Source: Candidatus Altiarchaeota archaeon (lineage in GTDB: Archaea > Altiarchaeota > Altiarchaeia > IMC4 > QMZM01). Taken from it: a DNA stretch of 44,982 bases. Each line of letters starts with the position of its first letter. The first letter of the stretch is position 1. Made by a program: the position numbers and the translations under genes. Positions 1 through 42,793 of this stretch are shown here, piece by piece. The notes beneath the pieces were generated by a model, which worked only from the letters and a program-made list of their open reading frames with translations, was not told the origin of the DNA and ran no database searches. The stretch is from contig JAFGDV010000017.1 of assembly GCA_016931955.1 (NCBI GenBank), forward strand, positions 1-44,982, read 5' to 3'.

Positions 1-33
1 CAAAGGAGGTGCAAGCGCAAGGTAACGGGATAT

Positions 34-75
34 ACGCAATTCCTCCGTGGACTAAAGTCCACGGTATCCTTGCGT
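34..75. mobile_element. Probable terminal hairpin (end) of an IS200/IS605-family element continuing left of the window
   Basis: CCGTGGAC-TAAA-GTCCACGG perfect stem (45-64) inside ACGCAA...TTGCGT (34-75); the CAATTCCTCC..CTAAAG..GGTATCCTTG layout resembles IS605/IscB/TnpB ends. Confidence 0.65.
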
Positions 76-82
76 GTTTGTA

Positions 83-1093
83 ATGAAAAAAACAAAAAAG
101 ATTTATATTTTAATTTTTTTGGCCGTCGTTGTGAGTTTGTTTTATTTATCATGGTCACAGAACACGCCAACTGGCGCATTTATAGGAACAAAGGATGAAC
201 CTGTAAGGATATCTCTTTTAACATATACCGGTTATGCACCATTTTATCTTGCAAAAGAATTGAGTTTTTTTGAAAAAGAGGGTGTGAATGTTGAACTTAT
301 AAGGATAGATGATATTGGTGAAGGCAGAGCCGCATTAAAGTCAAAAAGAGTTGATGCTGCACCCATGACATTGGATATGATGATTGCAGCAGCAGATGCT
401 GGTGTTCCATGTACTGCTGTTTCAATGGTTGATAGATCACTGGGTGCCGATGGGATAGTCACTACAAATGAGATAACGAAAGTTGAGGATTTGCAAGGGA
501 AAAAAATTGCGCTGCAACGAGGTTACCCGTCATATACGCTTATGTTGTATCTCCTCCAGAATAAAGGCATGAAAACAGATGATATAGAGATAATAGAGAT
601 GAATGGAGAAGATGCTGCAGCAACCTTTATAGCAAGAAAAATTGATGCTGCTGGAACATGGGAACCATGGTTGAGTAAAGCAACATCAAGAAAAAATACA
701 CATGTACTTATATCCAGTAGAGACGAACCCGGCATAATATCCGATGTTTTAGTCTTCAATTCAGAGTTCGTAAAAGAAAGACCTGATGAAGTTAGAGCCA
801 TTATGCGAGCATGGTTTGATGCAATCGAATACTGGGAAGAACACAAAGAAGAATCAAACAGGATAATGGCTGATGCATACGATCTAAGTTTAGATGATTT
901 TATTATAATGACCGAAGGTGTTGAATGGTCAGACTACAATATGAGCCAAGAGTATTTTAGAACAGATGTAGAGTGCAAAATTTGTGAGATAAAGAAAACA
1001 ATAGAAAAGGCATACATAAATGAAGGTGTTATATCCGGCAATTCTTTGGCTCGCATAGATTCTTCATTTATGAAGGGACTTTATACGCTTTAG
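83..1093 (+). CDS. ABC-type substrate-binding protein, NMT1/SsuA/THI5-like
   Basis: N-terminal Lys-rich plus hydrophobic anchor; GYAPFYLAKE, DRSLGADGIV, DLQGKKIA, WEPWLSKA motifs; ATG at 83 preferred over GTG at 74. Confidence 0.85.
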   Translation: MKKTKKIYILIFLAVVVSLFYLSWSQNTPTGAFIGTKDEPVRISLLTYTGYAPFYLAKELSFFEKEGVNVELIRIDDIGEGRAALKSKRVDAAPMTLDMMIAAADAGVPCTAVSMVDRSLGADGIVTTNEITKVEDLQGKKIALQRGYPSYTLMLYLLQNKGMKTDDIEIIEMNGEDAAATFIARKIDAAGTWEPWLSKATSRKNTHVLISSRDEPGIISDVLVFNSEFVKERPDEVRAIMRAWFDAIEYWEEHKEESNRIMADAYDLSLDDFIIMTEGVEWSDYNMSQEYFRTDVECKICEIKKTIEKAYINEGVISGNSLARIDSSFMKGLYTL

Positions 1094-2094
1094 GGTATAC
1101 TAATCACCTCGCCAGTTACATCAACAATTGGACGTAATTCCTTAAAGTCTATAAGGGAAAAAACGAACCGCGTATCAGATGTTATACCATACTCTCCCAA
1201 AGCAAAAATTAAGAATTCACCACCTAGTGCAGACACACCAGCGTAGTTCTCTGTAGGTAACACACCCAAAAATGGATGCGCTGGTTTCCCTATCAAGTAA
1301 AGGCCCCCAAATATCTCTGCAATTTTCCTTAGCTTGTCTCTAACCGCAAGTATTGATGTACCAGGATACTCTCGGTAATCTACTGGGATGAAACCATGTC
1401 CTGTTTCTGCTACTGATCGTATTTCTGTCATACCCTTCAGTAGAAAATCTTCGAATGGATCGACAGAACAATCTTTGGTAGGTACGAGATAAACGAACCT
1501 TTGCGGTTTTTTGTCAAAGAACTCTGCCATGCCCCCATATTTTACAATAGTGTATATCCCACTGTTGAGGAATATACCATCTAATATTGTGCTTGATATC
1601 GTGATTAAAGCCATTTTCCCTTCTGGGACTCTATAATCTAAGATGTCCTCCCCTTCATGCGCTGTCGCAACGAAAGGCGGTGCAAAATTTAAATCCATAC
1701 AAATCTTTTCAAGAAGTTTGAAAACTTCGGTTTCTTTTTCTGCGTCGAATAGTGAAAGATTTGCAACAACATTGCCTTTTTTCTTTTCTAAATCAAAAGA
1801 CATTTCAGTACTCAACTGTATAATTTCGTCAATTACGTAATTTAACTTCGTATGCACCATCGCTTTTCTCTTTTCTTCTTTACCTGCCGCGGTTATTAAT
1901 CTCCCATCTCTTCCATGATTTTCACTAAACCCTTTACTATCCAACAATTCAAGGTACTGTGTAATTCGTCTCCTGCTTAAGTCAATCCCGATTTTTTGTA
2001 ATTCTCTTTCTATTTCTGCTGAAGTCACTGCCCGGTTTTTCCGGTCTAGTACTGATAGTATTTCGTATTCTGTTCGGTCTGTTACTATCTCCAT
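1090..2094 (-). CDS. NrpR-family regulator (winged HTH + one NRD/DUF128 domain), paralog 1, most divergent
   Basis: EILSVL..LSRRRITQYLELLDSKG..GRLITAAGKEE wHTH; GNVVANLS, VPEGKMALITISS, DPF, DYREYP NRD motifs. Confidence 0.85.
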   Translation of the reverse strand: MEIVTDRTEYEILSVLDRKNRAVTSAEIERELQKIGIDLSRRRITQYLELLDSKGFSENHGRDGRLITAAGKEEKRKAMVHTKLNYVIDEIIQLSTEMSFDLEKKKGNVVANLSLFDAEKETEVFKLLEKICMDLNFAPPFVATAHEGEDILDYRVPEGKMALITISSTILDGIFLNSGIYTIVKYGGMAEFFDKKPQRFVYLVPTKDCSVDPFEDFLLKGMTEIRSVAETGHGFIPVDYREYPGTSILAVRDKLRKIAEIFGGLYLIGKPAHPFLGVLPTENYAGVSALGGEFLIFALGEYGITSDTRFVFSLIDFKELRPIVDVTGEVISIP

Positions 2095-2132
2095 GGTTAT
2101 TACCTTATCGGTTTCAGGCTAAAAATACTTTC

Positions 2133-3125
2133 CTATAGAAGAAGGACTTCGCCGCGGATGGGAGCGATAGGAGTGAGTTCTTTGAAGTTGATTGTTGATG
2201 CTAATGTGTCGTAGTTTGTTTTCACTCCTTTTGCTTCAAGTACTTCGAAAAGGGACTCAGGTGCTACTGTTATTAGACCAAAGTAGCCGCGTCTCGTTGG
2301 GATGCCGCGGAGGTTGTCTCCGTAGCCTCCAACAATTATCGTACCCCCAAGTATGTGCGCCACCTTCCGTGCTATGTCTACAACTCTTGCTCGGACAGTG
2401 TAAGGGACTTCGTCATACTCGAATAGGACTTGTCCATTACCGTTAGATACACAACCATATGTATCCGCCTGCTTATGTTCTATGAACGACTTAAACGGGT
2501 CGAAGGAAACACCTTCCAGTGAAACGAAATTCGTGCATCTTATGGGTTTCCATTCTCTGAATTCCAAGGTCCCTGTACTGCTAAAGCACATGAAGATTCC
2601 GTTATTGAACAAGATTTGTTCCATGACCGAGCATGTTAGCAGCGTCAACCCGAACATGCCTTCTGGAACTACTCTGCTGCCTATTTTCTCCCCTGAGTGC
2701 GAAATTTTTGCTAACTGAGAAAATAGCGGGCTCTGACAGATTTTTTCGAGAATGCACATAGTCTTCTCCTCGTATTTTTCTTTGATTATGCATGAATTGG
2801 CTAATAGTTCTCCTCTCTGGCGGACAAGATCAAAATTTGCATCCATAATCATCCGCGCGATGAGGTCAAAAATAAAATCCGCCCTAGCATAAACATAACC
2901 AGTCTTCAGCTCACCCCTACCCCCCTCAGTAATCCTCCTACCCTTCTTCCCCAAGTTTTCGGTGAAGCCTTTCTTGTCGAAGTCCTGTAGATAATTCCTA
3001 ATCATACGATCCGTCAGACGAATGCCTAAATCATCCAATTCCTTCTTCAGCTCACCCGAAGTCATCGGCTTATTATTTCGCTCCAACGCAGACAAAATCT
3101 CGAAGACATTATGCTCACGCTTCAC
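2133..3125 (-). CDS. NrpR-family regulator, paralog 2
   Basis: LTDRMIRNYLQDFDKKG..GRRITEGGRGEL wHTH plus NRD motifs; GTG start overlaps stop of paralog 3. Confidence 0.85.
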   Translation of the reverse strand: MKREHNVFEILSALERNNKPMTSGELKKELDDLGIRLTDRMIRNYLQDFDKKGFTENLGKKGRRITEGGRGELKTGYVYARADFIFDLIARMIMDANFDLVRQRGELLANSCIIKEKYEEKTMCILEKICQSPLFSQLAKISHSGEKIGSRVVPEGMFGLTLLTCSVMEQILFNNGIFMCFSSTGTLEFREWKPIRCTNFVSLEGVSFDPFKSFIEHKQADTYGCVSNGNGQVLFEYDEVPYTVRARVVDIARKVAHILGGTIIVGGYGDNLRGIPTRRGYFGLITVAPESLFEVLEAKGVKTNYDTLASTINFKELTPIAPIRGEVLLL

Positions 3126-4114
3126 AGCAATATCACCTCACCTCTGACGGGAGCGATTGGTTCAAGCTCCTTAAAGTTAGTTTTTGTTGTGAATGTGTCG
3201 TAGTTCGTTTTTATGCCTTTTTCTTCGAGGGCGGCGATTATTGATTCTCCTGCGATTGGTATGATGCCGAAGTATCCTCTTTTTGTGGGTATGCCTAGGA
3301 GGTTGTCTCTGTAGCCTCCGACGACTACTGTGCCGCCTAGTACGCTCACCATCTTCTGGAGTACTTTTATTGTCTTGGATCTGACGGTGTATGGTATATC
3401 ATCGTATTCGACGAGGACGCCTCCGCGTCCTCTGGTTGCTGCATCATATACACCAACCATTTTGTAGTCTATGAACAACTTCCATGGGTCGAATGATACC
3501 CCTAAGCCCGATGCGAATTCCGTGCATCTAACGGGCGTATGGTCTTCGATTTTAGCTATGCCGCTATAACCGAAGTCGACAAATATTCCATTATTGAAGA
3601 TGCATTGATCTACTGCGCCGCTGCTGACAACAGAAAGACCGAACATATCCTTTGGCACTTCTCTGCCAGATATTTTTTCGCCTGCGTGGCTTATTTTAAC
3701 GAGCGGCGAGAACAGGCTGCTTTGACAGACTTCTTCAAGAATATGCAAAGTCTTCTCTTCATGGCTTTCTTTAATTAATACGTGGCAGGTCACCACTTCC
3801 CCTTTCAGCCTATCCAAATCAAACTTAGCGTCCATCATCAAACGCTTAACCAAATCAGAGATCAAGTCTGTGCGAGCATATATAAAAGAATTCTTCAATT
3901 CATCTCTTCCTCTTTCCGTGATCTTACGACCTTCTTTCCCAAACGTCTGAGTGAATCCCTTCCTGTCGAAGTCCTGCAGGTAGTTACGGATCATACGATC
4001 AGTTAGACAAATACCGATATCATCCAACTCCGCCTTTATTTCAGCCGAAGTCATGAATTTATTGCTCCGCTCTAAAGCAGAGAGTATCTCGAATATTTTA
4101 GGCCGATTCTTCAT
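3122..4114 (-). CDS. NrpR-family regulator, paralog 3
   Basis: Same wHTH+NRD architecture; ATGA start/stop overlap with paralog 4. Confidence 0.85.
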   Translation of the reverse strand: MKNRPKIFEILSALERSNKFMTSAEIKAELDDIGICLTDRMIRNYLQDFDRKGFTQTFGKEGRKITERGRDELKNSFIYARTDLISDLVKRLMMDAKFDLDRLKGEVVTCHVLIKESHEEKTLHILEEVCQSSLFSPLVKISHAGEKISGREVPKDMFGLSVVSSGAVDQCIFNNGIFVDFGYSGIAKIEDHTPVRCTEFASGLGVSFDPWKLFIDYKMVGVYDAATRGRGGVLVEYDDIPYTVRSKTIKVLQKMVSVLGGTVVVGGYRDNLLGIPTKRGYFGIIPIAGESIIAALEEKGIKTNYDTFTTKTNFKELEPIAPVRGEVILL

Positions 4115-5106
4115 AACAATATCACCTCACCTCTGACGGGAGCTATTGGCTCTAACTCCTTGAAGTTGATGGCTGATAAAAGCGTTGAATAATTGGTTTT
4201 GATTCCTTTTTCTTCCAATGCCGCGAAAATAGACTCACTGCCAACCAAGACAAGACCACAATAACCAGCCCTCGTTGGCACCCCAAGAAGATTATCGCCA
4301 TAGGAGCCGACTACCACTATACCGCCGATTATGTCCACAGTCTTCCTCAGCAAACTTATAACCCTTGCCCGGGCAGTGTATGGTATTTCACAATACTCTG
4401 CTAGAACACTTCCACCCCCCTTAGTGACGCAGTCATAGACCTGCACATATTTATGTCTTATAAACATCTCCCACGGATCAAAGGAAACACCTGAACCTGA
4501 AACGAATTTTGTGCATTTAACCGGATTCCAATTCTTGACCTCTAATATGGTGCTGTTTCCAAAATGCATAAAAACCCCATTATTAACTAAGATCTGATCC
4601 ATCACAGTAGCTGTGCTCAGCACAGCTAAACCAAACATTCCTTCAGGTACTACCCTATTACAGAGTCTCTCCCCTGAGTGGGCAGTTTTCACAAGAGGAG
4701 ATAAAAGACCACTCTGACAGATTTCACCTAAAATTTCCATGACTTTATCTTCCTTACTTCCCTTAATCATCACCAATGAAACTATAAGCTCGCCACGCTG
4801 CCTATTTAAATCAAATCTTGTGTCTGTTACCATTCGCGCGATTAAATCAAAAACAAAATCAGAGTGAGCATAAATAAAAGACGTCTTAAGTTCGTCTCGG
4901 CCTTTTTCTGTGATCTTCCTGCCTTCTTTCCCGAACGGCTGAGTGAAGCCCTGCTTGTCGAATTTCTGTAAATAGTTGCGGATCATGCGGTCAGTTAAAC
5001 GAATACCTATGTCAACTAGTTCGGCCTTAATTTCATTAGACGTCAGCGGCTTATTATTCTTTTCAAGCACGGACAAAATCTCGAAGACATTATGCTCTCG
5101 CTTCAC
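4111..5106 (-). CDS. NrpR-family regulator, paralog 4
   Basis: Same architecture; GTGA overlap with paralog 5. Confidence 0.85.
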   Translation of the reverse strand: MKREHNVFEILSVLEKNNKPLTSNEIKAELVDIGIRLTDRMIRNYLQKFDKQGFTQPFGKEGRKITEKGRDELKTSFIYAHSDFVFDLIARMVTDTRFDLNRQRGELIVSLVMIKGSKEDKVMEILGEICQSGLLSPLVKTAHSGERLCNRVVPEGMFGLAVLSTATVMDQILVNNGVFMHFGNSTILEVKNWNPVKCTKFVSGSGVSFDPWEMFIRHKYVQVYDCVTKGGGSVLAEYCEIPYTARARVISLLRKTVDIIGGIVVVGSYGDNLLGVPTRAGYCGLVLVGSESIFAALEEKGIKTNYSTLLSAINFKELEPIAPVRGEVILL

Positions 5107-6092
5107 AGCAAAATCACCTCACCCTTAACCGGAGCTATTGGTTCAAGCTCCCTGAAATTGATGGCGCCATCTATCGTCTCAGTATTAGTCTCTATACCCT
5201 TCTCCTCCAAGGCAGCGGGCAGAGACTCTCCACTGAATGCCACAACGGGGGTATATGTTTCTTTGGGATGGATCCCGAAAATATCTTCCCCCGCCCTGCC
5301 CACAGCAACTTTACCTCCTAAAACCTCCAATCCCCCCCTGAGCAGCTTTATCGCCTTAACCCTTGAAGTATAGGGAAACTCCCGGTAATCCCCAAGTATC
5401 CTCCCAGTCCCAGTGGTTGCCGCACCGTAAACAGAGGCTGCTTTTTTTTCAATAAAGAATCCTAGTGGATCAAAAGAACAACCTATTGCATTTACAATAT
5501 CAACGCAACGCGTCGGCCTGTGATTTTTGATTTCAAGAATAATACCCCAAGAGATAATAGAGTATATGCCTTCATTCAACAACATTTGGTCGACTGTTAT
5601 GCTACTCATGGTGACGATGCCTATTTTGCCTTCAGGCACAAACCTATTACAGAGCTTCTCCCCCTCATGCCGGACACAGATAAAAGGTGGGAAAACCCCG
5701 GATGAACAAACATCCTCAAGAACCTTCAGAGCCCGGCTTTCTTCCTTTTCGAGGATATAGGACAGATTAACTATTACTTCGCCTCGACATCGATTGACAT
5801 CAAATTTCGTTTCAGTAATCATCCTCACAATCTTATCAAAAATAAAATCTGTCCGAGCATAAACATAACCGGTCTTCAGCTCATCCCTACCCACATCAGT
5901 TATACACCGACCTTCTTTGCCAAGATTCTTAGTGAAGCCTTTTTTGTCAAAATCCTGGAGATAGTTGCGGATCATGCGGTCAGTTAAACGAATACCTATG
6001 TCATCGAGTTCCGCCTTAATTTCTCCAGAAGTCATAGGCCGATTATTCCTCTCCAACACCGATAAGATCTCGAAGACGTTGCGTTCCTTCAT
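5103..6092 (-). CDS. NrpR-family regulator, paralog 5 (first gene of the tandem operon)
   Basis: Start moved to ATG 6092 (MKERNVFEILS) by alignment with paralogs; GEVIVNLS, VPEGKIGIVTMSSITVD, DPL, GDYREFP. Confidence 0.88.
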   Translation of the reverse strand: MKERNVFEILSVLERNNRPMTSGEIKAELDDIGIRLTDRMIRNYLQDFDKKGFTKNLGKEGRCITDVGRDELKTGYVYARTDFIFDKIVRMITETKFDVNRCRGEVIVNLSYILEKEESRALKVLEDVCSSGVFPPFICVRHEGEKLCNRFVPEGKIGIVTMSSITVDQMLLNEGIYSIISWGIILEIKNHRPTRCVDIVNAIGCSFDPLGFFIEKKAASVYGAATTGTGRILGDYREFPYTSRVKAIKLLRGGLEVLGGKVAVGRAGEDIFGIHPKETYTPVVAFSGESLPAALEEKGIETNTETIDGAINFRELEPIAPVKGEVILL

Positions 6093-6193
6093 TCTGGAAT
6101 AATATTTAGGGGAGCAGACGCTATAAAGAATCCTAAGGGGGATGATCACGATGAATAGATCCCGCAATTAGTCAAAATAAAAGAAGAAAAAAC

Positions 6194-6481
6194 TTAGAGG
6201 TGCTTTTCAGCGTACTCCATAGCAGACTTCGCGTCCCCCAGCTCAAGGTTCACTGGAATACAGTAGGTCTTAAGCAGATCAAGGAACTCGGAAAGAGAGA
6301 CTCCGGCGAATCTCGCACCCAAGCCAAGGCTGACCTTACCCTCCCTGTAAAGCTCCAACGCCTCCATCTGCCTCCCCTTAAACAAAAGACTTCTTATAAC
6401 CTTGGACCTCTTCTTCCTCAGAATCCTGCCGATAAAATCCAAATCCTTCACACGCTCCAATCGAACAGATACCGTCTCCAT
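6194..6481 (-). CDS. UPF0175-family putative antitoxin
   Basis: ALELYREGKVSLGLGARFAGVSLSEFLDLL signature; next to PIN gene. Confidence 0.8.
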   Translation of the reverse strand: METVSVRLERVKDLDFIGRILRKKRSKVIRSLLFKGRQMEALELYREGKVSLGLGARFAGVSLSEFLDLLKTYCIPVNLELGDAKSAMEYAEKHL

Positions 6482-6486
6482 TTTTT

Positions 6487-6972
6487 TTACTCCAACCTGC
6501 TTTTAAAGTAAGCATAAACCTCCTTCGAATACCTCCCATAATCATAAAGCCTGTCCAGCTTCCCCTCAGCCTCCTCTTTCGTAAAAAGCCCCTTCTCAAA
6601 CAACCTGACGACCACAGCCATCGCACAAACGAAGGGGATCCTCTCAACCCTGCACAACTTTATAAGCTCCCCGTCATCTGTCAACAAAGCCTTGGCTTCG
6701 GCTTCATTAAACAAAACATAAGCAGCTGCCTCGCCTTCATGGAGCCTGAACTGCTTAAGCACTGCCGTCAATTTACTCTTTTTTATTTCCCTCACCTCAA
6801 GTCTACCCCTCTCCACTTCCTTCCGGATGAGCACGGAATCAAATGCGTCCTTGTTCACAGACACCTCCCCTAAAACCTCCCCAGGAATAACCACCCTAAA
6901 GTTATCTAAAAACTCCTGGATAACAGACGCCTTCGCCAACAAAATCAAAGTCGACGCATTAGAAACCAACAT
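6487..6972 (-). CDS. DUF3368-type PIN-domain nuclease (putative toxin)
   Basis: MLVSNASTLILLAK, VVIPGEV, LHEGEAAA, LLTDD PIN motifs; start moved to ATG 6972. Confidence 0.8.
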   Translation of the reverse strand: MLVSNASTLILLAKASVIQEFLDNFRVVIPGEVLGEVSVNKDAFDSVLIRKEVERGRLEVREIKKSKLTAVLKQFRLHEGEAAAYVLFNEAEAKALLTDDGELIKLCRVERIPFVCAMAVVVRLFEKGLFTKEEAEGKLDRLYDYGRYSKEVYAYFKSRLE

Positions 6973-7003
6973 ATTACAAATATATACATTTGCAATATAA
7001 AAA

Positions 7004-7200
7004 TCACAGCAACAAAAACTCGCCACAGACGGAGGCAACCGATTCAAGCTCCCTGAAGTCCATCATAGTGCACAAAAACATGAAAATATGTGCAGTACAT
7101 TTTATCCACAGCCCAACCCGGATCCGATCCCGCCCGACATCATAGGCCGATTATTCCTCTCCAACACAGACAAGATCTCGAAGACTTTGCGTTCCTTCAT
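7004..7200 (-). pseudogene. Internally deleted seventh NrpR-family copy
   Basis: 7200-7102 translates MKERKVFEILSVLERNNRPMMSGGIGSGLGCG* (near-identical to paralog 5 start); 7066-7004 translates MMDFRELESVASVCGEFLLL*, matching the paralog C-terminus INFRELEPIAPVKGEVILL*. Confidence 0.85.
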
Positions 7201-7340
7201 TTTCTTGGGTTATTGTTTAGGGAACACTGAGTTATAAGGGGGGGAGAACTTGGCTTATTTGTTTCTTGCAGACAATATTTAAGAGGACGTATTTTTATAA
7301 TTATACAACAAACCCCACACAGGCCCTGGAAAAACATAAA

Positions 7341-8801
7341 ATGATGCATTGGATAATGGCGGCCGTGGTAGGATTCTTCGCCATAATAATATTGGTAGGC
7401 TTATACCTCTCCAAGTCAGTGAAGGGGAGAAGCGAAAACTACATAGTAGCAGACAGAAAACTGATCCTCGGAGTAACAGCGGCAACGCTGACCGCCCAAA
7501 GCATCGACGCAGACATAACACTGGGGTTGACGAATTTCACCTTCCAATACGGTTTCTGGTCGGGTGCGGCAATGATCCTGGGCCTAGGCGGCGCACTAAT
7601 CCTGATAGGATTATTCTTCGCCGAACCACTGAACAAGATGAAACTACTCACACTACCAGACTTCTACCGGAAAACCTACGGAAGACACATGGAAGCCATG
7701 GTATCCATGCTAATGGCCCTAAGCGCCTCAATATTCATCGGCGGATGCCTCGTCGCCCTAGGCTTCATCTTCCAAAGCTTCCTCGGAATACCCTACTGGC
7801 CCGCCATAATACTCGTCTCGGCAGGCATACTAACATACACTATGGCAGGCGGCCTGGTCTCAATATCCAAGACAGACATCATACAGTTAGTCTTCGTTCT
7901 ATTAGGAGCAGCAGCCCTCATGTTCATCGTATTAGATTATGGATTACTATCCAACATAACACAGGGAATAGAAAACCCGAGCAAGATGCTGGACTCGAAC
8001 ACGGGTCCGGCAGTCAACATAGCGATCCTACTGGCCCTAGGGTTAGGGAACATTGTCGCAATAGACTTCATGGAGCGCGTATTCGCGACCGACAAACCAG
8101 AAACATCCAAGAAAGCATGCTACATCGCAGGAATAGGGACCATACTCATAGGGATACCCTTCATCCTCGTAGGAGTGTCCTCCAACAGCCTATTCACTGA
8201 ATTAGACATCCCAGTCAACCCAGACGCTGAGCCCGTGCTGCTGACCTTCCTATCCAATGTGCAGCCTCAGATCCTTACTTACCTGATCCTGTTGGGGCTT
8301 ATCGCGGCCGCCGTGTCTACGGCAGACGGATTGATTCTGGCGGCCTCCTCTATAACCTCCCACAACCTGCTGGGGTATAAGCCAGGTTCTTTGAATAAGA
8401 GAGGAGACCGGCTGCTGTACATGTCGAGGCTGTGCATGATACCTGTTCTCGCATTCAGCATAGTGTGCGCCATCACCCTGCCCTTCCCAGGCACGCTAAT
8501 AATACTATCATTCGACATACTGCTCTCCGGGGCAGCTATTCCATTCATACTGGGGGTGCACTGGAAGAAAGCCAACAAGCCGGCGGCCATCGCATCCTTT
8601 GTGGCGGGAGTGCTCACACGCCTCCTCCTCTTTGTGCTGACGCCGACCTTCTACGGCATAGAGAACAACATACTGTTCATAGAAGGCTTCCTAACACCAG
8701 CCTTCGATGGAGTGCCGACCATCCTATCACCCCTCATCGGCTTGGTGGTCTTCGTCGCAGTCGCCTCGATAACGCAAGAAAACAACATAAAGACGGGCTA
8801 A
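7341..8801 (+). CDS. Sodium:solute symporter (SSS/PutP/DUR3-like)
   Basis: ENYIVADRKL, LLTLPDFY..YG, YTMAGGLVSISKTDIIQ, AAAVSTADG; many TM segments; ATG 7341 downstream of TTTTATAA (~7293). Confidence 0.9.
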   Translation: MMHWIMAAVVGFFAIIILVGLYLSKSVKGRSENYIVADRKLILGVTAATLTAQSIDADITLGLTNFTFQYGFWSGAAMILGLGGALILIGLFFAEPLNKMKLLTLPDFYRKTYGRHMEAMVSMLMALSASIFIGGCLVALGFIFQSFLGIPYWPAIILVSAGILTYTMAGGLVSISKTDIIQLVFVLLGAAALMFIVLDYGLLSNITQGIENPSKMLDSNTGPAVNIAILLALGLGNIVAIDFMERVFATDKPETSKKACYIAGIGTILIGIPFILVGVSSNSLFTELDIPVNPDAEPVLLTFLSNVQPQILTYLILLGLIAAAVSTADGLILAASSITSHNLLGYKPGSLNKRGDRLLYMSRLCMIPVLAFSIVCAITLPFPGTLIILSFDILLSGAAIPFILGVHWKKANKPAAIASFVAGVLTRLLLFVLTPTFYGIENNILFIEGFLTPAFDGVPTILSPLIGLVVFVAVASITQENNIKTG

Positions 8802-9793
8802 TAGAGTAATAGACCGCCTCTCAATTCAGCGATCGGTTGAAGCTCATTGAAGTCCATGCTCGCCTCCACCGTCGTTGTGTTCGTTTTTATGTTACGCTCT
8901 TCTAGAGCAGACAACAGAAGTTCTCCGCCGAATCCAACTATTCCAGTATAGCCCTCCTTGGTCTTTAAGCCGAGCACTTCAGACCCTGTTCTGCCGATAA
9001 CGACCAAGCCGCCGAAGACGTCGACGAACTCTTTCAGTACTTTAAGCGCCCTCAGCCTGGCTGTTGAAGGTATCTCCCTGTAGTCGGCTGGTATGCCCCC
9101 AAGATTCTTCTTCACTGCCTCATAGACGCTGCCCATCCTGTTCGAGATAAAGATCTGGAGAGGGTCTATGGAGCTTCCCTCATAGGAGATCAGTTCAGTG
9201 AATCTCTTCGGCTTATGTTCTAGGAACTCAATAAGGCCGCCGTAGAGGGGGTTCACATAGATCCTCTCATTCAGGAGTACTTCCTCTATCGTCACACTCG
9301 ATATGGTGGCTAAACCGAACATGCCCTCAGGAACCTCTCTATTGCACAGGTTATCCCCCTGTCTCGCTGTTTTTATGAACGGGGGAGTCAGGTTTATTCC
9401 ATCGCAGATTTCCTTGAGTGTTTTTATGGTCTCATCCTCCTGGTCTTCTTGGATGAATGAAAGATTCACTATGACGTCGCCCTTCCCCCTCTCCAAGTCG
9501 AATCTAGTATCCGTGATAAGCCTGACGATCCTATCCAGTATGAAATCCGACCTACCAAAGATGTAGGCCTTCTTCAGCTCTTCCCTCCCAAGCTCGTTTA
9601 TCTGTCTCCCGGATCTGCCGAGTTTTCGGGTGAAGCCCATCCCATCAAGGGATTCCATATAGTTTCTGACCATCCTCTCAGTCAGATCAATACCGATATC
9701 ATGTAGTTCGTCCCTGATCTCTCCAGAAGTCATGGGCTTGTTCGCCCGATCCAACGCAGACAAGATCTCGAAGACGTTTTTTTCTTTGGTCAT
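8798..9793 (-). CDS. nrpR: NrpR-family regulator, paralog 6 (closest to canonical NrpR)
   Basis: LTERMVRNYMESLDGMG wHTH; KGDVIVNLS, YGGLIEF, RFTELISYEGSSIDPLQIF, ADYREIP. Confidence 0.85.
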   Translation of the reverse strand: MTKEKNVFEILSALDRANKPMTSGEIRDELHDIGIDLTERMVRNYMESLDGMGFTRKLGRSGRQINELGREELKKAYIFGRSDFILDRIVRLITDTRFDLERGKGDVIVNLSFIQEDQEDETIKTLKEICDGINLTPPFIKTARQGDNLCNREVPEGMFGLATISSVTIEEVLLNERIYVNPLYGGLIEFLEHKPKRFTELISYEGSSIDPLQIFISNRMGSVYEAVKKNLGGIPADYREIPSTARLRALKVLKEFVDVFGGLVVIGRTGSEVLGLKTKEGYTGIVGFGGELLLSALEERNIKTNTTTVEASMDFNELQPIAELRGGLLLY

Positions 9794-9829
9794 CTTATGG
9801 TTATGGCTTAGGTAGGGAGAAGCTATATG

Positions 9830-10714
9830 CTATTTTCGGACGATGAGGTAGTTGGATAACAGGATCAATGCTCCGCCGGCTACTATGTTCAAGGTAATAG
9901 GCTGCTGGAAGAATACACAGGCGAGGAGGGTCGCGCTGATGGGTTCAAGGGGCATGATAACGCCCGCCCTAGAAGCCGACACAAAATCCAAGCCAGTATA
10001 GAACAATGTGTCGGGGATGATGAAGGCGACAAAAACATAGAGAAAGAAGAAAACAGGATACATTAAAGGAAAACCAAGAGAGAAACCGATGATGCTGGAA
10101 TCGTTCACGAAAAAAGACAATACAGGGAAAAACAACAACAGCCAGAAGAGGGGGAAGACCATGGAAGCAAATGTTGTCGTAAAATGATGCTGTTTATGTA
10201 GTTCGCTTTCTCTGCTGTAGATCACCCAAAGAGACAAGAAGACCCCGGAGAGTAGGGCGAGGAATAGCCCAAAGTTACCCGCTACGCCGCCGAAGAGCCG
10301 AGGATCCACTACTATGAAAACCCCCACGAAACTCAAAAGGATGGCTGAAAGCTTGTCTCGGGTGACTGGCTCCCCTAGGAATGGCTTCGCGAATAAGACA
10401 GTCCACAGAGGCTCCGTGTACAGGAGAAGTACTGCTACAGCAATTGGGACGCCTAAGACGATGGCACCGAAACAGGAAAGCTGGAGAAGACATCCAATAA
10501 GACCATAACCGAGGAAAAACAGGAACATACCCTTCTGGATCATGTACTGTCTCCTCAAAAGGAGGACGGAAGACATGAACAAGGAACCGGAGAGGAAGGT
10601 GTAGAAGGCGATCTCGTAGAGAGAGAAGCCAAGCTCTTTGAAGAACTGGCAGCCTACGGATATGAAGCCATAGAATACGGCAGCCAGCATGACAAAGGAG
10701 TAACCCTCGCGCAT
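9830..10714 (-). CDS. EamA/DMT family transporter
   Basis: About 10 TM; AVLLLYTEPLWTVL, LGEPVT, AGVIMPLEPISATLLA. Confidence 0.9.
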   Translation of the reverse strand: MREGYSFVMLAAVFYGFISVGCQFFKELGFSLYEIAFYTFLSGSLFMSSVLLLRRQYMIQKGMFLFFLGYGLIGCLLQLSCFGAIVLGVPIAVAVLLLYTEPLWTVLFAKPFLGEPVTRDKLSAILLSFVGVFIVVDPRLFGGVAGNFGLFLALLSGVFLSLWVIYSRESELHKQHHFTTTFASMVFPLFWLLLFFPVLSFFVNDSSIIGFSLGFPLMYPVFFFLYVFVAFIIPDTLFYTGLDFVSASRAGVIMPLEPISATLLACVFFQQPITLNIVAGGALILLSNYLIVRK

Positions 10715-10775
10715 AAGCTATAATACAACGAAGGAGGTAAAAAACTTGACGGTTTCGGAAGAACCATTGAGTTAT

Positions 10776-10789
10776 GGAAGGGGGTTTCC
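10776..10789. promoter_or_regulatory. Candidate NrpR operator GGAA-N6-TTCC
   Basis: GGAA GGGGGT TTCC, exact consensus, intergenic, upstream of the EamA-nrpR6 pair. Confidence 0.5.
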
Positions 10790-10943
10790 GTTTGCGGGGA
10801 CCAAAACACCCATTTTAAGGAACTTTAGAGTATTTATATCATCTTACTGCATAACATCCAGCATCATAGAACCCCAATACATATAAAAAAAGGATTTGTC
10901 TGGCTTATTTCCATTTCTAAGGCTGTCTGTGGCTGAATCAAGG

Positions 10944-10959
10944 CGGTAATGGGTTTCCG
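10944..10959. promoter_or_regulatory. Second candidate NrpR operator (one mismatch)
   Basis: CGGTA ATGGGT TTCCG just upstream of TATA-like TTTTTAAA (~10965). Confidence 0.35.
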
Positions 10960-11015
10960 TAAGCTTTTTAAAGGCATGATACAGATATTAAGATTACATA
11001 GGGGCTTGTGAAAAA

Positions 11016-11054
11016 AAGGGTGCGCCCACGGAAAATACGGTGGGCGCATCCCTT
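11016..11054. terminator. GC-rich hairpin flanked by A/T runs (terminator of the minus-strand gene or leader structure of the small plus-strand ORF)
   Basis: TGCGCCCAC/GTGGGCGCA 9-bp stem plus AAGGG/CCCTT; T7 run follows on the minus strand. Confidence 0.55.
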
Positions 11055-11074
11055 ACAAAAAAAAGGTGATTTAA

Positions 11075-11260
11075 GTGAACCGAAAATTTGTTGGGGTGTT
11101 CTCGATAGACGGTTCAGGTAACGGCATCATAGAGGTAACGGAAGAATCCTTAGGGATAGAGGATGGCGAAGAAGTGAGTATCCTATGGGAGAGATCAGGC
11201 AAGGCTGAAACGCTTAAGGACGTCGTAGATGGAGAGAACGTTATACATCCCCCTGCTTAG
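11075..11260 (+). CDS. Small protein, possibly AbrB/SpoVT-like swapped hairpin
   Basis: GGTGA SD 5 nt before GTG; IDGSGNGIIEV..SLGIEDGEEVSI pattern; overlaps 3' end of convergent gene. Confidence 0.45.
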   Translation: MNRKFVGVFSIDGSGNGIIEVTEESLGIEDGEEVSILWERSGKAETLKDVVDGENVIHPPA

Positions 11261-12253
11261 GTCCACTACGTAGTGGTTGTGTTCGAAGCCATCCCCCTTC
11301 TTAAACAATTGCAGAAGGGTTGTATCCCCTGATATGATCTGGCCTCGTTCTATGGGAGTCATTATCTGCTCCACAGTGGTCTCCGCAAGAAAGCCCACAT
11401 TACCCAGGTTACTGCCTATCTTGTTCATTACGTTCTTCGTCGTTATAATACCCTTCGGCTCAGTGGAGAAGGCTATCACGAAATCGTTTGTGTGTAGGAT
11501 CCTCAGAAGCTTATGCGCTGAATCCCTCAGATCGGCTATAGGAACGGTCTCCGTAGTAAGATCACTCAGAGGGAGCTTCCACATGTCATGAATCCACTTC
11601 TCAATGGAGTTCTCATATTCCTTAAGGAATCTGTCGAAGATTTCATGAAGCCTTACGCCGTCCTCTGTCAGATGGTAGTCTCGCCCCTTGATGCCGAAGA
11701 TGCTTATCTTGGTGTCCCCGATCCTTATCTTTCTCGTCGAGAGGTGATAGCGTAGGGTGCTTGCTGGTAGATAGCCGTGGGCGCTCCGATACATGTCACC
11801 TATCTCGTTGAATTTTCTCGGCTTCATCATCAGCACATGTATGAGTATGTTGCTCACGTTGTCGAAGAACAGTTCAGAGAACACGTTCGCCGTATTCTGT
11901 AAGTCTTTGTCGTTTATCTTCCCGTCCTTCGGCTTATCCCCCACGAGGTCCAGTACCTGTAGGGCGGTCTCTGAGAGCAGGCGGAAAAATATGTCATTCT
12001 TTAAGACGTAGGTCTTCTCCACCTTGTCTACTATGTTGTGGTTCCTTAGCAGGGAAAGGGATTTGCTCACCACGAAGCTCTGCACATCCCTTAGGCTTCT
12101 GCGTATTTCGCGGACCTCCATTTCTTTTTTCTCATCGAGGAGGAACATTATCTTGCACACAGGCGACTGGGAGAATATGCTGAGCAGGCTTCCTATGTGT
12201 TCGTATGTGTAGCCGAACCTGCTGAGCTTTGAGATGTTGTATCCCTTTGGCAT
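11195..12253 (-). CDS. Putative regulator: two winged-HTH domains plus degenerate CBS pair
   Basis: VSKSLSLLRNHNIV and STLRYHL..YHLTEDG wHTH-like motifs; KGIITTKNVM, TTVEQIMTP, VLSIYDVLK CBS-like motifs. Confidence 0.6.
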   Translation of the reverse strand: MPKGYNISKLSRFGYTYEHIGSLLSIFSQSPVCKIMFLLDEKKEMEVREIRRSLRDVQSFVVSKSLSLLRNHNIVDKVEKTYVLKNDIFFRLLSETALQVLDLVGDKPKDGKINDKDLQNTANVFSELFFDNVSNILIHVLMMKPRKFNEIGDMYRSAHGYLPASTLRYHLSTRKIRIGDTKISIFGIKGRDYHLTEDGVRLHEIFDRFLKEYENSIEKWIHDMWKLPLSDLTTETVPIADLRDSAHKLLRILHTNDFVIAFSTEPKGIITTKNVMNKIGSNLGNVGFLAETTVEQIMTPIERGQIISGDTTLLQLFKKGDGFEHNHYVVDLSRGMYNVLSIYDVLKRFSLA

Positions 12254-12287
12254 TTTAAGTCAGATTTGATGCAATTTTTCGGAATAT

Positions 12288-12337
12288 TATTACATGTGCA
12301 GTCAAGATTAAAAAACTATTCTTGACAAAATGTAATA
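12288..12337. promoter_or_regulatory. Nested inverted repeat in divergent promoter (candidate operator)
   Basis: TATTACAT-N5-GTCAAGA-N12-TCTTGAC-N3-ATGTAATA. Confidence 0.5.
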
Positions 12338-12398
12338 TATTGTAATTAGATGGTTTACTTTCTGTTAGGTATATAAGCCTGTGAGAGTAATTTATACC

Positions 12399-13436
12399 AT
12401 GCTGAAGCTCACAGAACGAGAGAAGAAGGTCTTCTACGGCCTGATAAGGTGGCCGGAGCTGACAGACAAAGAGCTTTCAGAGAAGCTAGGTATTGGAAGG
12501 TCAACGGTAACCACAATAAGGAACCGATTAGAGGGACATGATTTATACAAAACGATAAACGTCCCCGACTTCGAGCGTATAGGCTGCGAGGTCTTCACCG
12601 CACTGTATGGAGAATACCATCCGAAAGCAAGCTACAGCAAGATCAGAGAAGACATAGAAAAAGAATTCGGTAGCATGTTCTTCATGATGTCGATGGGCGT
12701 CCACAAGCTCTCACTGGGGGCGTCAAAAACCTTCACCGAGGTAAAGAAGCACATAGAGGAATACCACCTCAGACACCACGAGATAGGGGTCTCATATGAG
12801 AAAAAACACACCTACGTTCTATTTCCGCTAAAACTGAGCAGGATCTTCAGGTTCTTCGACTACTCTCCGCTGCTGAAGGAACACTTCAAGCTGGATATAG
12901 AGGAAGAAGGAGAGAAAGGGGATGAGAGGAAGATAACGCTAACCAGAAACGAAAAAGAAGTGTATCACGCATTGATAAGGCATCCTGAGCTCACGGATGG
13001 GAAAATAGCCTCAAAGACTGGGATGAGCAGGCAGACAGTAAGCGCGATAAAAAAGAAGATCATGGAGCATGGGCTCATAAAGAGGATAAGGGTACCAGAT
13101 GTTGGGAAGCTCGGATTCGAGCTGCTGGCGTTCACGCACATGCACATGAACCCCAAGATGCCCATAGAAAAGAGGAGTGAAGGAATAGAGCTGATGATGG
13201 AAAGCCCGGCGAACATACTCAAAGTCTCAGGAAACCTGGAAAGCATCATGCTGTCCGTATTCAAGGACTACACTGAATACCTGAATACGTATGATAAACT
13301 GTTCTCATACTACAAGGAAAACGATTTCCTGTTAGAGGAGCCCACGGTCAAGATATTCTCCACCAGGGAGGCGGACTTGGAGATGCACCACCGCTATCAT
13401 CCCCTCGTAGAAAGTGTCTTTATGTCGACTGAATAG
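12399..13436 (+). CDS. Internally duplicated Lrp/AsnC-like transcriptional regulator
   Basis: Two repeats LT..EK.V...LIR.PELTD..(S/A).K.G..R.TV..I followed by VPD..(R/K)(I/L)G.E; ATG 12399 after TATATAA. Confidence 0.8.
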   Translation: MLKLTEREKKVFYGLIRWPELTDKELSEKLGIGRSTVTTIRNRLEGHDLYKTINVPDFERIGCEVFTALYGEYHPKASYSKIREDIEKEFGSMFFMMSMGVHKLSLGASKTFTEVKKHIEEYHLRHHEIGVSYEKKHTYVLFPLKLSRIFRFFDYSPLLKEHFKLDIEEEGEKGDERKITLTRNEKEVYHALIRHPELTDGKIASKTGMSRQTVSAIKKKIMEHGLIKRIRVPDVGKLGFELLAFTHMHMNPKMPIEKRSEGIELMMESPANILKVSGNLESIMLSVFKDYTEYLNTYDKLFSYYKENDFLLEEPTVKIFSTREADLEMHHRYHPLVESVFMSTE

Positions 13437-40644: not shown

Positions 40645-42654
40645 TTAATAAGCAGTTGGTTTCTTATCCACTAAGGTCATCTGTGCCTTGTCCTTCAAAT
40701 GCTCTTCCTCTAAGCGCACCCTCAGCCTATGCTCTGCGGACTTCAGGATGGATGCGAGCATCTCGGAGTATTTCATGCCAATGGCCTTCGCCATCTTAGC
40801 CAGATGCCCGTCCCAGCACCATCCGGGGTTGGGGTTGACCTCAAGCAGCTTCGGCTTCCCATCAGAATTCAGTCGCCAATCGAACCTGCAGTAGTCCCTA
40901 CACTCAAGCCGCTCGAACAATTTCAGGCAGCATTCGACCACGAACTTCTCCGTATCCTCCGGGAGGTTGGCTGGGATGGATTTTATTTTCCAGTAAGGCG
41001 AGTCCGGAAGCCACTTGGCCTCGTATCCACATATCTTCGGCAGATCAGAGGGCAGCTCTGAGTAGTCTTCTTCCGTGATCGGCAGAACCGTGTAGGATTC
41101 GGGTGGATTTCCTATGATGCCGACGCTGATGTCGTTCCCTGTCAGAAATTCCTCGATGATGAATGGTTTGTCGTAGCCGAATTTTTCCCTGATGTTGGAG
41201 ATGGCGTTGACGAGTTCTTCACTGTTGCTGGCTATGCTCTTCTGGGTTATCCCGAAGCTCGAGTCGCCGAAGTTCGGTTTAATTATTACCGGAAAGCTGA
41301 AGGGCAGCTCAAATGTGCTGTCCTCAGGCTTGATGAATAAGCCCTTGGGCACTGGGATACCCATCTCCTCAGCGATTCCGCGGACGAGGGATTTGTCGTA
41401 GCAGAAGGCGAGACACTGCGGCCCAGAGCCCGTATATGGGATGTTGAGCATCTCAAGCAATGCTGGAACGTGAAGCTCTTTTCTGGCGTCGTTGTTGTAT
41501 CCCTCATCGCAGAGGTTGAAGATGAAGTCTATCCTACCCTTTATCTTCATCATGTCATGTATCAGTGAGTCGTGGTTGTTCAGATAGACGAACTTGTAGT
41601 TCTTGTTTTCCCTCAACGCAGCCTTCAGTTGGTCGATTGTATAAAAGTCGTCTTCGTCGAATACGCAGCAAGGTTTTAGTGGATCTGGCTTGCTGTAGTC
41701 ACCCAAGACCACGGCAACATTCCTGACAGCCGCCTTCGGTTTTCCTCTAACAGGAGACCACTGCTTTTTCACCACAGCGGTCACAATAAGCCTGCGCTCC
41801 ATCATTCCAAGATCCTGGGCCCTCTGTGATTCAGTCGCTATCCCCCCATTGAACTCTACGTTACTGAAGCCCGCGGTCTTCAGGAACCTATTCAGGTCTT
41901 CCTTGTTGTAGAGGCGTTCAGCGTAGAACTGGTCTGCGATGACCCCCTTGTTTACGTGGGATATGACCTCTCTTGAGATTAAACGTTCTCCGTCTACGGA
42001 GAGGGAGCGCTCCCGGCAGACGAAGTATTTCTTGTCTATCCACTCCCAGGAGCGGGGCTGAAAGTTCTGCTTCATGTGTTCGCCGTCTGCTACATCAATA
42101 AGGAGCCTGCCCCACGGCTTCAGGACCCTGAAGATCTCCCTCAGAACCTTCAGGTCGTCTTGGGAGTTTTCGAAGTATCCGAAGCTGTTCCCGAGAATCA
42201 TCACGACGTCGAACGTATCAGCTGGGTAGGGGATCTTTCTTGCATCGCCTTCCTTGAATTTCACTGGTAGGACGTCGCGTTTTGCGTCAGCCTTTGCCTT
42301 CTGTATCAGGTAATGTGATCTGTCCAGTCCTTCAACGTTCTCGAATCCGCGCCTCGCGATTTCGAGGGAATGTCTTCCTTGGCCGCAGGCGAGGTCTAGG
42401 ATCCTGCTCTTTGGTGAAGGCTTAAGGATGTCGAGAAACATGTCAATCTCTCTGCTGGTTATGTTCTGGTCGTCAACTACATCCGAGTCCGTTTTCAGGT
42501 ACATTGAGTTGAAGATGTAACGCCACCAGTCTGAACGGACGTGTTCTTCGAGATTTAGTACCGGCCCCAGAACCCCCCTCTGGTGTTTGCCGTTTCCCTT
42601 GCTTTGACGGCCTTTCTCCTTTGTTGAATCCCGCTTCACTTCTAAACAACCCAT
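40645..42654 (-). CDS. Fusion of class I SAM methyltransferase and D-Ala-D-Ala-ligase-like ATP-grasp domain
   Basis: ILDLACGQGRH, GLDRS, GNSFGYF; then FNLCDEG, IPYTGS, DKS, IIKP..SSFGI, EEFL.G, RFDWR, LEVNPNPG; start uncertain. Confidence 0.88.
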   Translation of the reverse strand: MGCLEVKRDSTKEKGRQSKGNGKHQRGVLGPVLNLEEHVRSDWWRYIFNSMYLKTDSDVVDDQNITSREIDMFLDILKPSPKSRILDLACGQGRHSLEIARRGFENVEGLDRSHYLIQKAKADAKRDVLPVKFKEGDARKIPYPADTFDVVMILGNSFGYFENSQDDLKVLREIFRVLKPWGRLLIDVADGEHMKQNFQPRSWEWIDKKYFVCRERSLSVDGERLISREVISHVNKGVIADQFYAERLYNKEDLNRFLKTAGFSNVEFNGGIATESQRAQDLGMMERRLIVTAVVKKQWSPVRGKPKAAVRNVAVVLGDYSKPDPLKPCCVFDEDDFYTIDQLKAALRENKNYKFVYLNNHDSLIHDMMKIKGRIDFIFNLCDEGYNNDARKELHVPALLEMLNIPYTGSGPQCLAFCYDKSLVRGIAEEMGIPVPKGLFIKPEDSTFELPFSFPVIIKPNFGDSSFGITQKSIASNSEELVNAISNIREKFGYDKPFIIEEFLTGNDISVGIIGNPPESYTVLPITEEDYSELPSDLPKICGYEAKWLPDSPYWKIKSIPANLPEDTEKFVVECCLKLFERLECRDYCRFDWRLNSDGKPKLLEVNPNPGWCWDGHLAKMAKAIGMKYSEMLASILKSAEHRLRVRLEEEHLKDKAQMTLVDKKPTAY

Positions 42655-42793
42655 GTGTGAGTTTACCTTCCGCCCCCGGGCAATAAATTTTATAGGTTGA
42701 CTCAAAAATGGTTATATATGTTTTTTTGCAAACTCTAATAAATATTTGTTATTATGGTTATATAAGTTTTTAAGTCGAACTTTTTTGGTGAGA

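Follow-up and report, generated by a model that had tools for sequence, protein, structure and literature searches.

We analysed a 44,982-nt stretch of DNA (the window) from Candidatus Altiarchaeota archaeon, contig JAFGDV010000017.1 of assembly GCA_016931955.1, that carries an array of genes for regulators of the NrpR family. NrpR is a textbook case of an archaeal transcription factor that senses 2-oxoglutarate directly; methanogens have one gene or a pair, and the Methanococcus maripaludis protein represses nif and glnA until 2-oxoglutarate releases it. A reading of the DNA made without database searches (the sequence-only reading) had proposed six genes of ~330 aa, five of them in tandem, each encoding a winged helix-turn-helix (wHTH) head and a single NRD sensor domain, and both the open reading frames (ORFs) and a Pfam search bear this out. 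The six genes, p1-p6, are intact minus-strand ORFs of 329-334 codons within positions 1090-9793, and a seventh copy, p7, is present on a second contig (C37) of the same genome. All seven are full-length and stop-free. Each of p1-p6 matches the PF08461 winged helix (E values of 4e-09 to 1.6e-15), as does p7, and each of the seven contains one PF01995 NRD (3e-37 to 1e-63) that covers model positions 2-237 of 238. For an AlphaFold2 model of p4 (predicted local distance difference test score of 93.6), the best fold match of the NRD was 3NEK, the regulatory domain of MJ0159, with a target-normalised template modelling score of 0.91, a root-mean-square deviation of 1.9 A and 21% identity; a sequence search likewise gave 3NEK as the only relative with a solved structure (E 3e-18). 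In domain content and in fold, the copies belong to the NrpR family. An NCBIfam search returned no model matching the six window paralogues.

Genes p1-p5 are consecutive. The junctions p5/p4, p4/p3 and p3/p2 are 4-bp overlaps, which fits transcription of these four genes as one operon, and a gap of 38 bp separates p2 from p1. An alternative TTG start at position 6167 would extend p5 to 354 aa. The sixth gene, p6, lies 2.7 kb beyond p5, with a UPF0175 gene, its partner ORF and a gene for an SSF symporter in between (Table 1).

With p3 as query against 1.84 billion representative proteins (E up to 0.001), just 290 matches were obtained, indicating a small family. The seven copies and 10 metagenomic proteins formed one clade in a tree built from 61 full-length single-NRD proteins, with a Shimodaira-Hasegawa-like approximate likelihood ratio (SH-aLRT) support of 100; its subgroups were p6, p7, a group of p2, p3 and p4 with metagenomic protein P0008, p5 alone, and p1 on a long branch. 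The named clade members are Candidatus Altiarchaeales metagenome-assembled genomes (MAGs), and the nearest named outsiders belong to Methanocellales, Hadarchaeota, Methanosarcinales/Methanoperedens and Bathyarchaeota. Across the phylum, PF01995 was detected in two of 61 species genomes (one of the 13 that are at least 90% complete), namely the present one with seven matches and G011, whose contig title reads Candidatus Altiarchaeales archaeon, with one. The single gene of G011, the other NRD-bearing genome of the phylum, is an orthologue of p6 with 70% identity.

The idea that the array is unique to this genome did not hold, as tandem pairs occur on related Altiarchaeales contigs and in the public MAG ex4484_43, where p7-like fragments and a p1-type gene bear consecutive locus tags. 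Two clade genes were present at 5 of 17 loci scanned by tblastn (L008-L024): a p4-like gene followed by a p7-like gene with a 4-bp overlap (L010), a p7-like gene followed by a p1-like gene (L011), p6-like and p1-like genes (both L014 and L015), and a cut p7-like gene, a toxin-antitoxin (TA) pair and an NrpR start (L016). These tandem pairs indicate that the expansion belongs to a sublineage and that array size varies among its members. The order at L015 is a C39 peptidase gene, a p6-like gene, a convergent SSF gene, a p1-like gene, a convergent gene for a substrate-binding protein (SBP) and a gene for an ATP-binding cassette (ABC) ATPase; at L009 it is a gene for a 352-aa regulator, the p6 orthologue, the SSF gene, 1.5 kb of further sequence and an AAA ATPase gene. 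Compared with these two loci, the window has a block consisting of an NrpR remnant, a TA pair, p5, p4, p3 and p2 between the SSF gene and p1, and an EamA gene, absent at the orthologous L009 locus, in front of p6. The pairing of p6 with SSF is kept in L009, L014 and L015, and that of p1 with SBP in L015.

The sequence-only reading had further held that the DNA-binding heads of the paralogues are conserved to an unusual degree and their sensors diversified. The peptides that it quoted, including six R[FC]...S.DP segments, are all present in the paralogue alignment, and the recognition helix reads LTDRMIRNYLQ in p2-p5 and LTERMVRNYME in p6. Since most homologues carry ER.VRYHL, the recognition-helix motif is a family-wide trait, and its conservation is by itself not special. 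The heads as a whole do stand out. The ratio of HTH to NRD identity was 1.41 for the 21 paralogue pairs and 1.52 within p2-p5, compared to 0.96 for a baseline of 971 outside family pairs of similar NRD divergence, and 16 of the 21 pairs exceeded the 95th percentile of that baseline (1.28). Taken together, the contrast between head and sensor beyond the baseline and the intact ORFs indicate that the array is not a product of chance.

Diversification of the sensors was likewise upheld, as the copies vary where other family members are conserved. We defined conserved positions as those common to at least 80% of 87 outside homologues, which gave 14 in the head and 24 in the NRD. Each copy retained 12-14 of the 14 head positions and 14-18 of the 24 NRD positions; the outside homologues retained a mean of 21.1 NRD positions (5th percentile of 16), a score that is high by construction, the consensus having been defined from these same rows. 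All 17 clade members have another residue in place of N292, an asparagine that 90% of the outside rows carry, and F198, Y204 and T221 are replaced differently among the paralogues. All copies retain many family residues (e.g. G105, G146, P195, G232 and P242), and p6 alone keeps the motif R-F-x3-I-x-Y-x-G-S-S-x-D-P (RF...I.Y.GSS.DP) that is common to 3NEK. At 37 NRD positions and 3 head positions, the p6 and p7 types are each fixed but differ from one another. The p1-type proteins from 6 sources have 81% head identity but 45% NRD identity, and for P0225 and the p1-like protein of L015 the two figures are 96% and 41%. The p6-type proteins of different populations displayed no such contrast (0.68 identity in the head vs 0.71 in the NRD).

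Trees of the two domains were discordant. In the head tree p2-p5 grouped together (SH-aLRT 97), and in the NRD tree p2-p4 grouped with P0008 and then with the p7 type, p5 falling outside. In approximately unbiased (AU) tests the head data rejected the group (p2, p3, p4, P0008) with p 0.002, the NRD data rejected the group (p2, p3, p4, p5) with p 1.5e-6, and the placement of p1 with other p1-type NRDs was rejected with p 0.004. Contigs 90-99% identical to the window were present in two marsh metagenomes. Some of these, one per run, join p5 at codon ~45 to p2 at codon ~46 and so skip 2970 bases, and another joins p3 at codon ~23 to p5 at codon ~22, skipping 1981 bases; every breakpoint falls within the head-coding segment. 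The variants, single contigs of depth 2.5-4.25, may be assembly chimeras; were they real, they would point to gain and loss of units by recombination between heads.

The UPF0175 TA pair of the window sits inside a duplicated p5 5' end. Positions 6194-7200 are 98-99% identical in the two marsh metagenomes (4/519 and 7/449 letters differ), and the neighbouring genes for SSF, p6 and the 352-aa regulator are ~93-96% identical, which suggests that this TA cassette spread more recently than its surroundings diverged. A MazE/AbrB and PIN_3 pair directly follows p7 (C37:39985-40666; L006:733-1415), and the TA pair of L016 (722-1472) lies between the truncated p7-like gene and another NrpR start. An IS605-type TnpB gene (OrfB_IS605 with a Cas12f1-like TNB domain) is found directly after the p7-like gene in L012 (1547-2782); in L014 (44-1279) one lies ~1 kb upstream of the p6-like gene.

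We also compared substitution rates by domain, a check that the sequence-only reading had named. Synonymous sites are saturated between paralogues in both domains (proportion of synonymous differences, pS, of 0.66-1.03), and nonsynonymous divergence (dN) among p2-p5 is 0.13-0.22 in the heads and 0.32-0.60 in the NRDs. Relative to the closest p6- and p7-type genes of other populations, the ratio of dN to synonymous divergence (dS) is ~0.06-0.3 where dS is estimable. Judged by these rates, the duplications are old, and the copies are not neutral but maintained under purifying selection. The domain-wise dN/dS comparison gave no sign of recent gene conversion among the copies. In two metatranscriptome runs from the study of the likely source sample, no contig matched window positions 1-12300, a result that counts neither for nor against expression of the copies. 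GC content at third codon positions (GC3) is 0.33 for p1 and 0.29 for the SBP gene, within the lowest 1% of 1193 genes; p2-p5 and p7 fall in the 6th-15th percentile, and p6, SSF and EamA are typical. At L015 the p1-like gene and the SBP gene (3984-6022) have GC3 values of 0.26 and 0.24 beside p6 and SSF genes of ordinary GC3. By this comparison, the low GC3 of the p1-SBP pair is a lasting compositional oddity.

The assembly, an Altiarchaeales-type MAG, comprises 1.55 Mb in 46 contigs and is 92% complete, with 7 PF01995 matches. A tblastn search of the genome revealed no further NrpR copy beyond the seven, the only extra piece being a 22-residue head remnant. Another match, C46:15386-15496, was rejected as not NrpR: it is a short winged-helix stretch of an unrelated small protein, which we take to resemble ribosomal protein S19e. 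On C37, p7 directly follows the gene for a 941-aa double-AAA ATPase and precedes the MazE/PIN_3 pair. The end of C37 carries ABC permease and ATPase genes and the start of the window carries the matching SBP gene; at L015 the ATPase gene adjoins the SBP gene, and the L015 proteins match this genome solely at those two contig ends. This order and these matches indicate that C37 adjoins the window, which places p7 ~6.6 kb away and, probably, the whole set of seven in a span of about 17-20 kb. The join itself stays provisional, as a dispersed repeat shared with many other contig ends occurs on either side of it.

This repeat of ~160 nt, with two hairpins that have TAAA loops, occupies window positions 1-87 and the last ~90 bases of C37, recurs at or within ~100 bases of many contig ends and is also present inside C12 and C42. 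Contigs C43 and C23 begin with exactly the 87 bases that open the window, an identity that takes in the initial codons of the downstream ORFs (VFVMKK). The assembly breaks at the repeat, and contig joins are therefore ambiguous. The half of the repeat that lies in the window had no Rfam match, and the window as a whole was negative in scans for Rfam families and tRNAs.

Work by Lie and Leigh from 2003 and 2005 is said to have defined GGAA-N6-TTCC as the NrpR operator consensus, together with its position at the promoter. Two candidate sites, 10776 and 10945, are present in the 480-bp region upstream of EamA-p6 (Table 1). The position of the second is kept at related loci, where the site reads GGAAGCTCATTACC in L009 and GGAAGCCCCTTGCC in L012/L023. 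A hairpin after the gene for the 352-aa regulator sets the EamA-p6 promoter apart from this upstream gene. A TATA box followed after 6-8 nt by GGAA-N6-T[TAG]CC was found at window position 10945, L009:1601, L012/L023, L015:3823, C37:38979 and C37:45046. The L015 example is a perfect site at the promoter of the p1-like gene; the two on C37 lie before a DUF5518 gene near p7 and between the divergent AAA-p7 unit and ABC permease gene. Genome-wide, 4 of 11 intergenic relaxed sites fall in the neighbourhood of the array, which makes up 1.2% of intergenic bases (binomial 7e-6). Three other sites were rejected as regulon members, C39:14258 because it lies inside a 186-aa ORF beside an aconitase-family gene, and C2:31089 and C21:5063 because they lie on start codons of radical-SAM genes. 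A search for palindromes common to eight promoter regions gave one AT-rich chance match only, and scanning the window's four intergenic stretches for inverted repeats revealed nothing operator-like, only a TATA palindrome and a terminator-like hairpin.

Genes of nitrogen assimilation are located elsewhere, on contig C43, which carries gltB-like genes, PII, amtB, glnK and glnA, with two PII genes in all. The genome scan detected neither a perfect nor a one-position-relaxed GGAA-N6-TTCC site on this contig, a result that does not exclude control via a diverged operator. A search of the genome for nifH gave weak P-loop matches only.

The remaining features of the locus are collected in Table 1. 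The partner ORF of the UPF0175 gene is presumably PIN/DUF3368-like. The remnant of an NrpR 5' end diverges from p5 after the copied stretch and reaches a stop at codon 33, and the SSF gene, by comparison with L009, likely starts near 7338. In both convergent pairs, p6/SSF (8798-8801) and p1/SBP (1090-1093), the stop codons overlap, so that transcription of either gene would run into its partner. Beyond the EamA-p6 promoter, the locus is flanked by the gene for the 352-aa regulator-like protein (11195-12253, minus strand), which has no Pfam match, and by a gene for a 351-aa regulator-like protein with two TrmB/MarR-type HTH regions (12381-13436, plus strand); both keep their synteny in L009 and L023. 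Of five relatives searched, one had the 352-aa protein, namely the genome that also bears an NrpR gene. A small ORF at ~11083-11250 (plus strand), presumably AbrB/SpoVT-like, lies antisense between the gene for the 352-aa regulator and the NrpR promoter and is kept between populations (L012:86-304, minus strand; L009 ~1370-1470). Far from the array, a 686-aa ORF (40645-42705, minus strand) combines a class I methyltransferase domain with a D-Ala-D-Ala-ligase-type ATP-grasp domain.

Table 1. Features of the NrpR-family array locus, in window coordinates.
Feature	Position	Strand	Remarks
NMT1/SsuA-type ABC substrate-binding-protein (SBP) gene	74..1093	+	converges on p1, 4-bp overlap
p1	1090..2094	-	334 aa, wHTH and one NRD; last array gene
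p2	2133..3125	-	330 aa, NrpR-family; fourth gene of the 4-bp-overlap operon
p3	3122..4114	-	330 aa, NrpR-family
p4	4111..5106	-	331 aa, NrpR-family
p5	5103..6092	-	329 aa from ATG; first operon gene
UPF0175-family antitoxin-like gene	6194..6481	-	PF03683, E 7.8e-10
UPF0175 partner ORF	6487..7047	-	no Pfam match (0 families)
NrpR 5'-end remnant, 32 codons	7102..7200	-	59/62 nt identical to p5 codons 1-20
SSF sodium:solute symporter gene	7266..8801	+	converges on p6, 4-bp overlap
p6	8798..9793	-	331 aa, NrpR-family
EamA-family transporter gene	9830..10714	-	36 bp upstream of p6, same strand
Perfect GGAA-N6-TTCC site (candidate)	10776..10789		62-75 nt upstream of the EamA-p6 unit
GGAAACCCATTACC site (candidate)	10945..10958	-	6 nt after a TATA-like box
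Hairpin followed by a T run	11015..11054	-	after the gene for the 352-aa regulator

The explanation that we favour, and regard as reasonably probable, is that the copies are locally acting NrpR-type repressors, which arose by lineage-specific expansion, share an operator type and have diverged in their effector domains. Each protein would bind a GGAA-N6-TTCC-type operator just after the TATA box and block transcription, as for NrpR. The targets would be chiefly the array locus and the transporter operons next to it, as opposed to the ammonium-assimilation genes, and the regulon would be mainly local, comprising the NrpR copies, the EamA gene, the ABC importer and possibly also the SSF gene and the AAA-p7 unit. 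The heads would stay alike because the same operator type is served, and selection, together with recombination inside the head-coding segment, would preserve their likeness. Since the sensors have diverged at family-conserved positions, the copies probably differ in effectors or affinities. Mixed oligomers among the copies are also possible; the coupled operon and the precedent of NrpRI and NrpRII (PMC3960522) make them plausible. The earlier suggestion of a near-invariant helix by which all six copies read one operator survives in part: operator-like sites do exist at the locus, but the helix motif is family-wide and that of p1 departs from those of its neighbours.

Several observations weigh against this explanation. 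The recognition helix of p1, RRRITQYLE, is unlike those of its neighbours, and the promoter region of the p5-p2 operon (7048-7340) is without a GGAA-N6-TTCC-type site. The consensus is not enriched genome-wide (35 sites vs 23 expected; 4 vs 3.2 in intergenic DNA), and the test for enrichment near the array was post hoc and used a crude ORF-based gene set. We chose the groups for the AU tests once the trees were known, the head alignment is short at 82 columns, and p1 has a long branch. Divergence of the sensors could also reflect relaxed constraint and not new ligands; the residues of the 2-oxoglutarate cleft were reportedly described by Wisedchaisri et al. in 2010.

We weighed other readings of the same locus. 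A more ambitious one, which we consider possible but rather doubtful, is a modular design of one head and many sensors, in which recombination in the head segment exchanges and multiplies NRDs behind an unchanging head, and co-translated copies form hetero-oligomers that integrate several metabolite signals at one GGAA-N6-TTCC operator for uptake systems. The four operon proteins, perhaps together with p1, may instead form an obligate hetero-oligomer, that is, one mixed repressor and not a set of separate sensors, whose NRDs would play the roles of NRD1 and NRD2 in two-NRD NrpR or of NrpRI and NrpRII. The 4-bp overlaps suggest coupled translation and equal amounts of product, the grouping of the p2-p5 heads within this genome is expected of partners at one operator, two-NRD forms exist in the family, and the NrpRI-NrpRII precedent (PMC3960522) points the same way. 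However, array size varies, from one copy before the ABC genes in L015 through at least 2-3 in the L010/L011 type to five here, and each copy has a complete head with no head-less NRD protein found in the genome. We therefore consider an obligate mixed repressor unlikely. A prediction of the p4-p3 complex, made without controls, scored 0.01 against a mark of 0.32 and weighs neither way.

It is slightly less probable again that all copies are redundant sensors of 2-oxoglutarate, with differences that are neutral or tune affinity and with copies that differ mainly in the timing or strength of their expression. The NRD fold and many conserved residues are kept in every copy, p6 retains the stretch in common with 3NEK, and 2-oxoglutarate is the sole effector known for the family (PMC11957540, PMC4902934). 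Replacement of N292 throughout the clade and the paralogue-specific replacements of Y204, F198 and T221 argue against redundancy, as do the type-fixed NRD positions, which point to constraint on different states and not to drift, and the lack of an operator-like site on the amtB-glnK-glnA contig. We give very little credence to the view that the array is an accessory, partly mobile cluster in flux, transferred with transporters and TA pairs, of little regulatory role and heading to loss. The patchy distribution of the family in the phylum would suit such a cluster, as would the low GC3 of p1, SBP, p2-p5 and p7, the TA pairs inside the duplicated p5 5' end and next to NrpR genes at C37 and L016, the TnpB genes beside or near p7-like and p6-like genes, and the array variants of the marsh metagenomes. 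Against this stand seven intact ORFs with saturated dS, low dN and purifying selection relative to their closest counterparts; moreover, the low GC3 of p1 and SBP is also seen in L015 and hence gives no sign of recent arrival here.

With M. maripaludis NrpR the copies share the same Pfam winged helix and NRD, and their candidate sites share the reported arrangement of GGAA/TTCC half-sites 6 nt apart after TATA boxes. They differ from it in having one NRD and not two, in number (seven copies and not one), in the replacement of several conserved NRD residues and in their host, which is Altiarchaeales-type and not a methanogen; the amtB-glnK-glnA contig has no such site, and there is no nifH here. 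The wHTH plus one NRD architecture is that of Methanosarcina mazei NrpRI, whose partner NrpRII has an NRD but no DNA-binding head. Methanosarcina NrpRI binds DNA and NrpRII, and NrpRII contacts TATA-binding protein (PMC3960522), so that the pair offers a precedent for two family members acting together. In contrast to this pair, every copy here has its own head, and the seven are mostly tandem, with mosaic head and sensor histories; a genome profile search and tblastn placed 7 of 7 PF01995 matches in head-bearing genes and found no head-less NRD partner. The structure 3NEK shows an NRD on its own, taken from a methanogen protein; its RF.D.I.Y.GSS.DP stretch recurs in p6, and p1-p5 and p7 depart from it at F198, Y204 and nearby. 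By function, the array copies are not established as nitrogen repressors, because no operator was found at nitrogen assimilation genes.

The literature searched, subscription papers and supplementary files aside, described no expansion of this kind, in agreement with the sequence-only reading. It held no paper linking NrpR with Altiarchaeales, and its paralogue-related work on NrpR concerned Methanosarcina only. New here are the phylum, the seven head-bearing single-NRD copies, the tandem and variable arrays, the mosaic evolution and the apparently local targets.

In a phylum where NRD genes are mostly lacking, the NrpR family has expanded to seven copies in a genome of 1.55 Mb. The conflict between head and sensor trees, together with the array variants, makes the locus a case study of regulator diversification by domain-level recombination. 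If the modular design were true, populations would carry arrays that differ in size and sensor content, and the NRD would be a general small-molecule sensor fold, as opposed to a dedicated sensor of 2-oxoglutarate. If the copies sense different molecules, they would offer a ready-made comparison for the determinants of ligand choice in the NRD, and the set would supply repressors with one shared operator.

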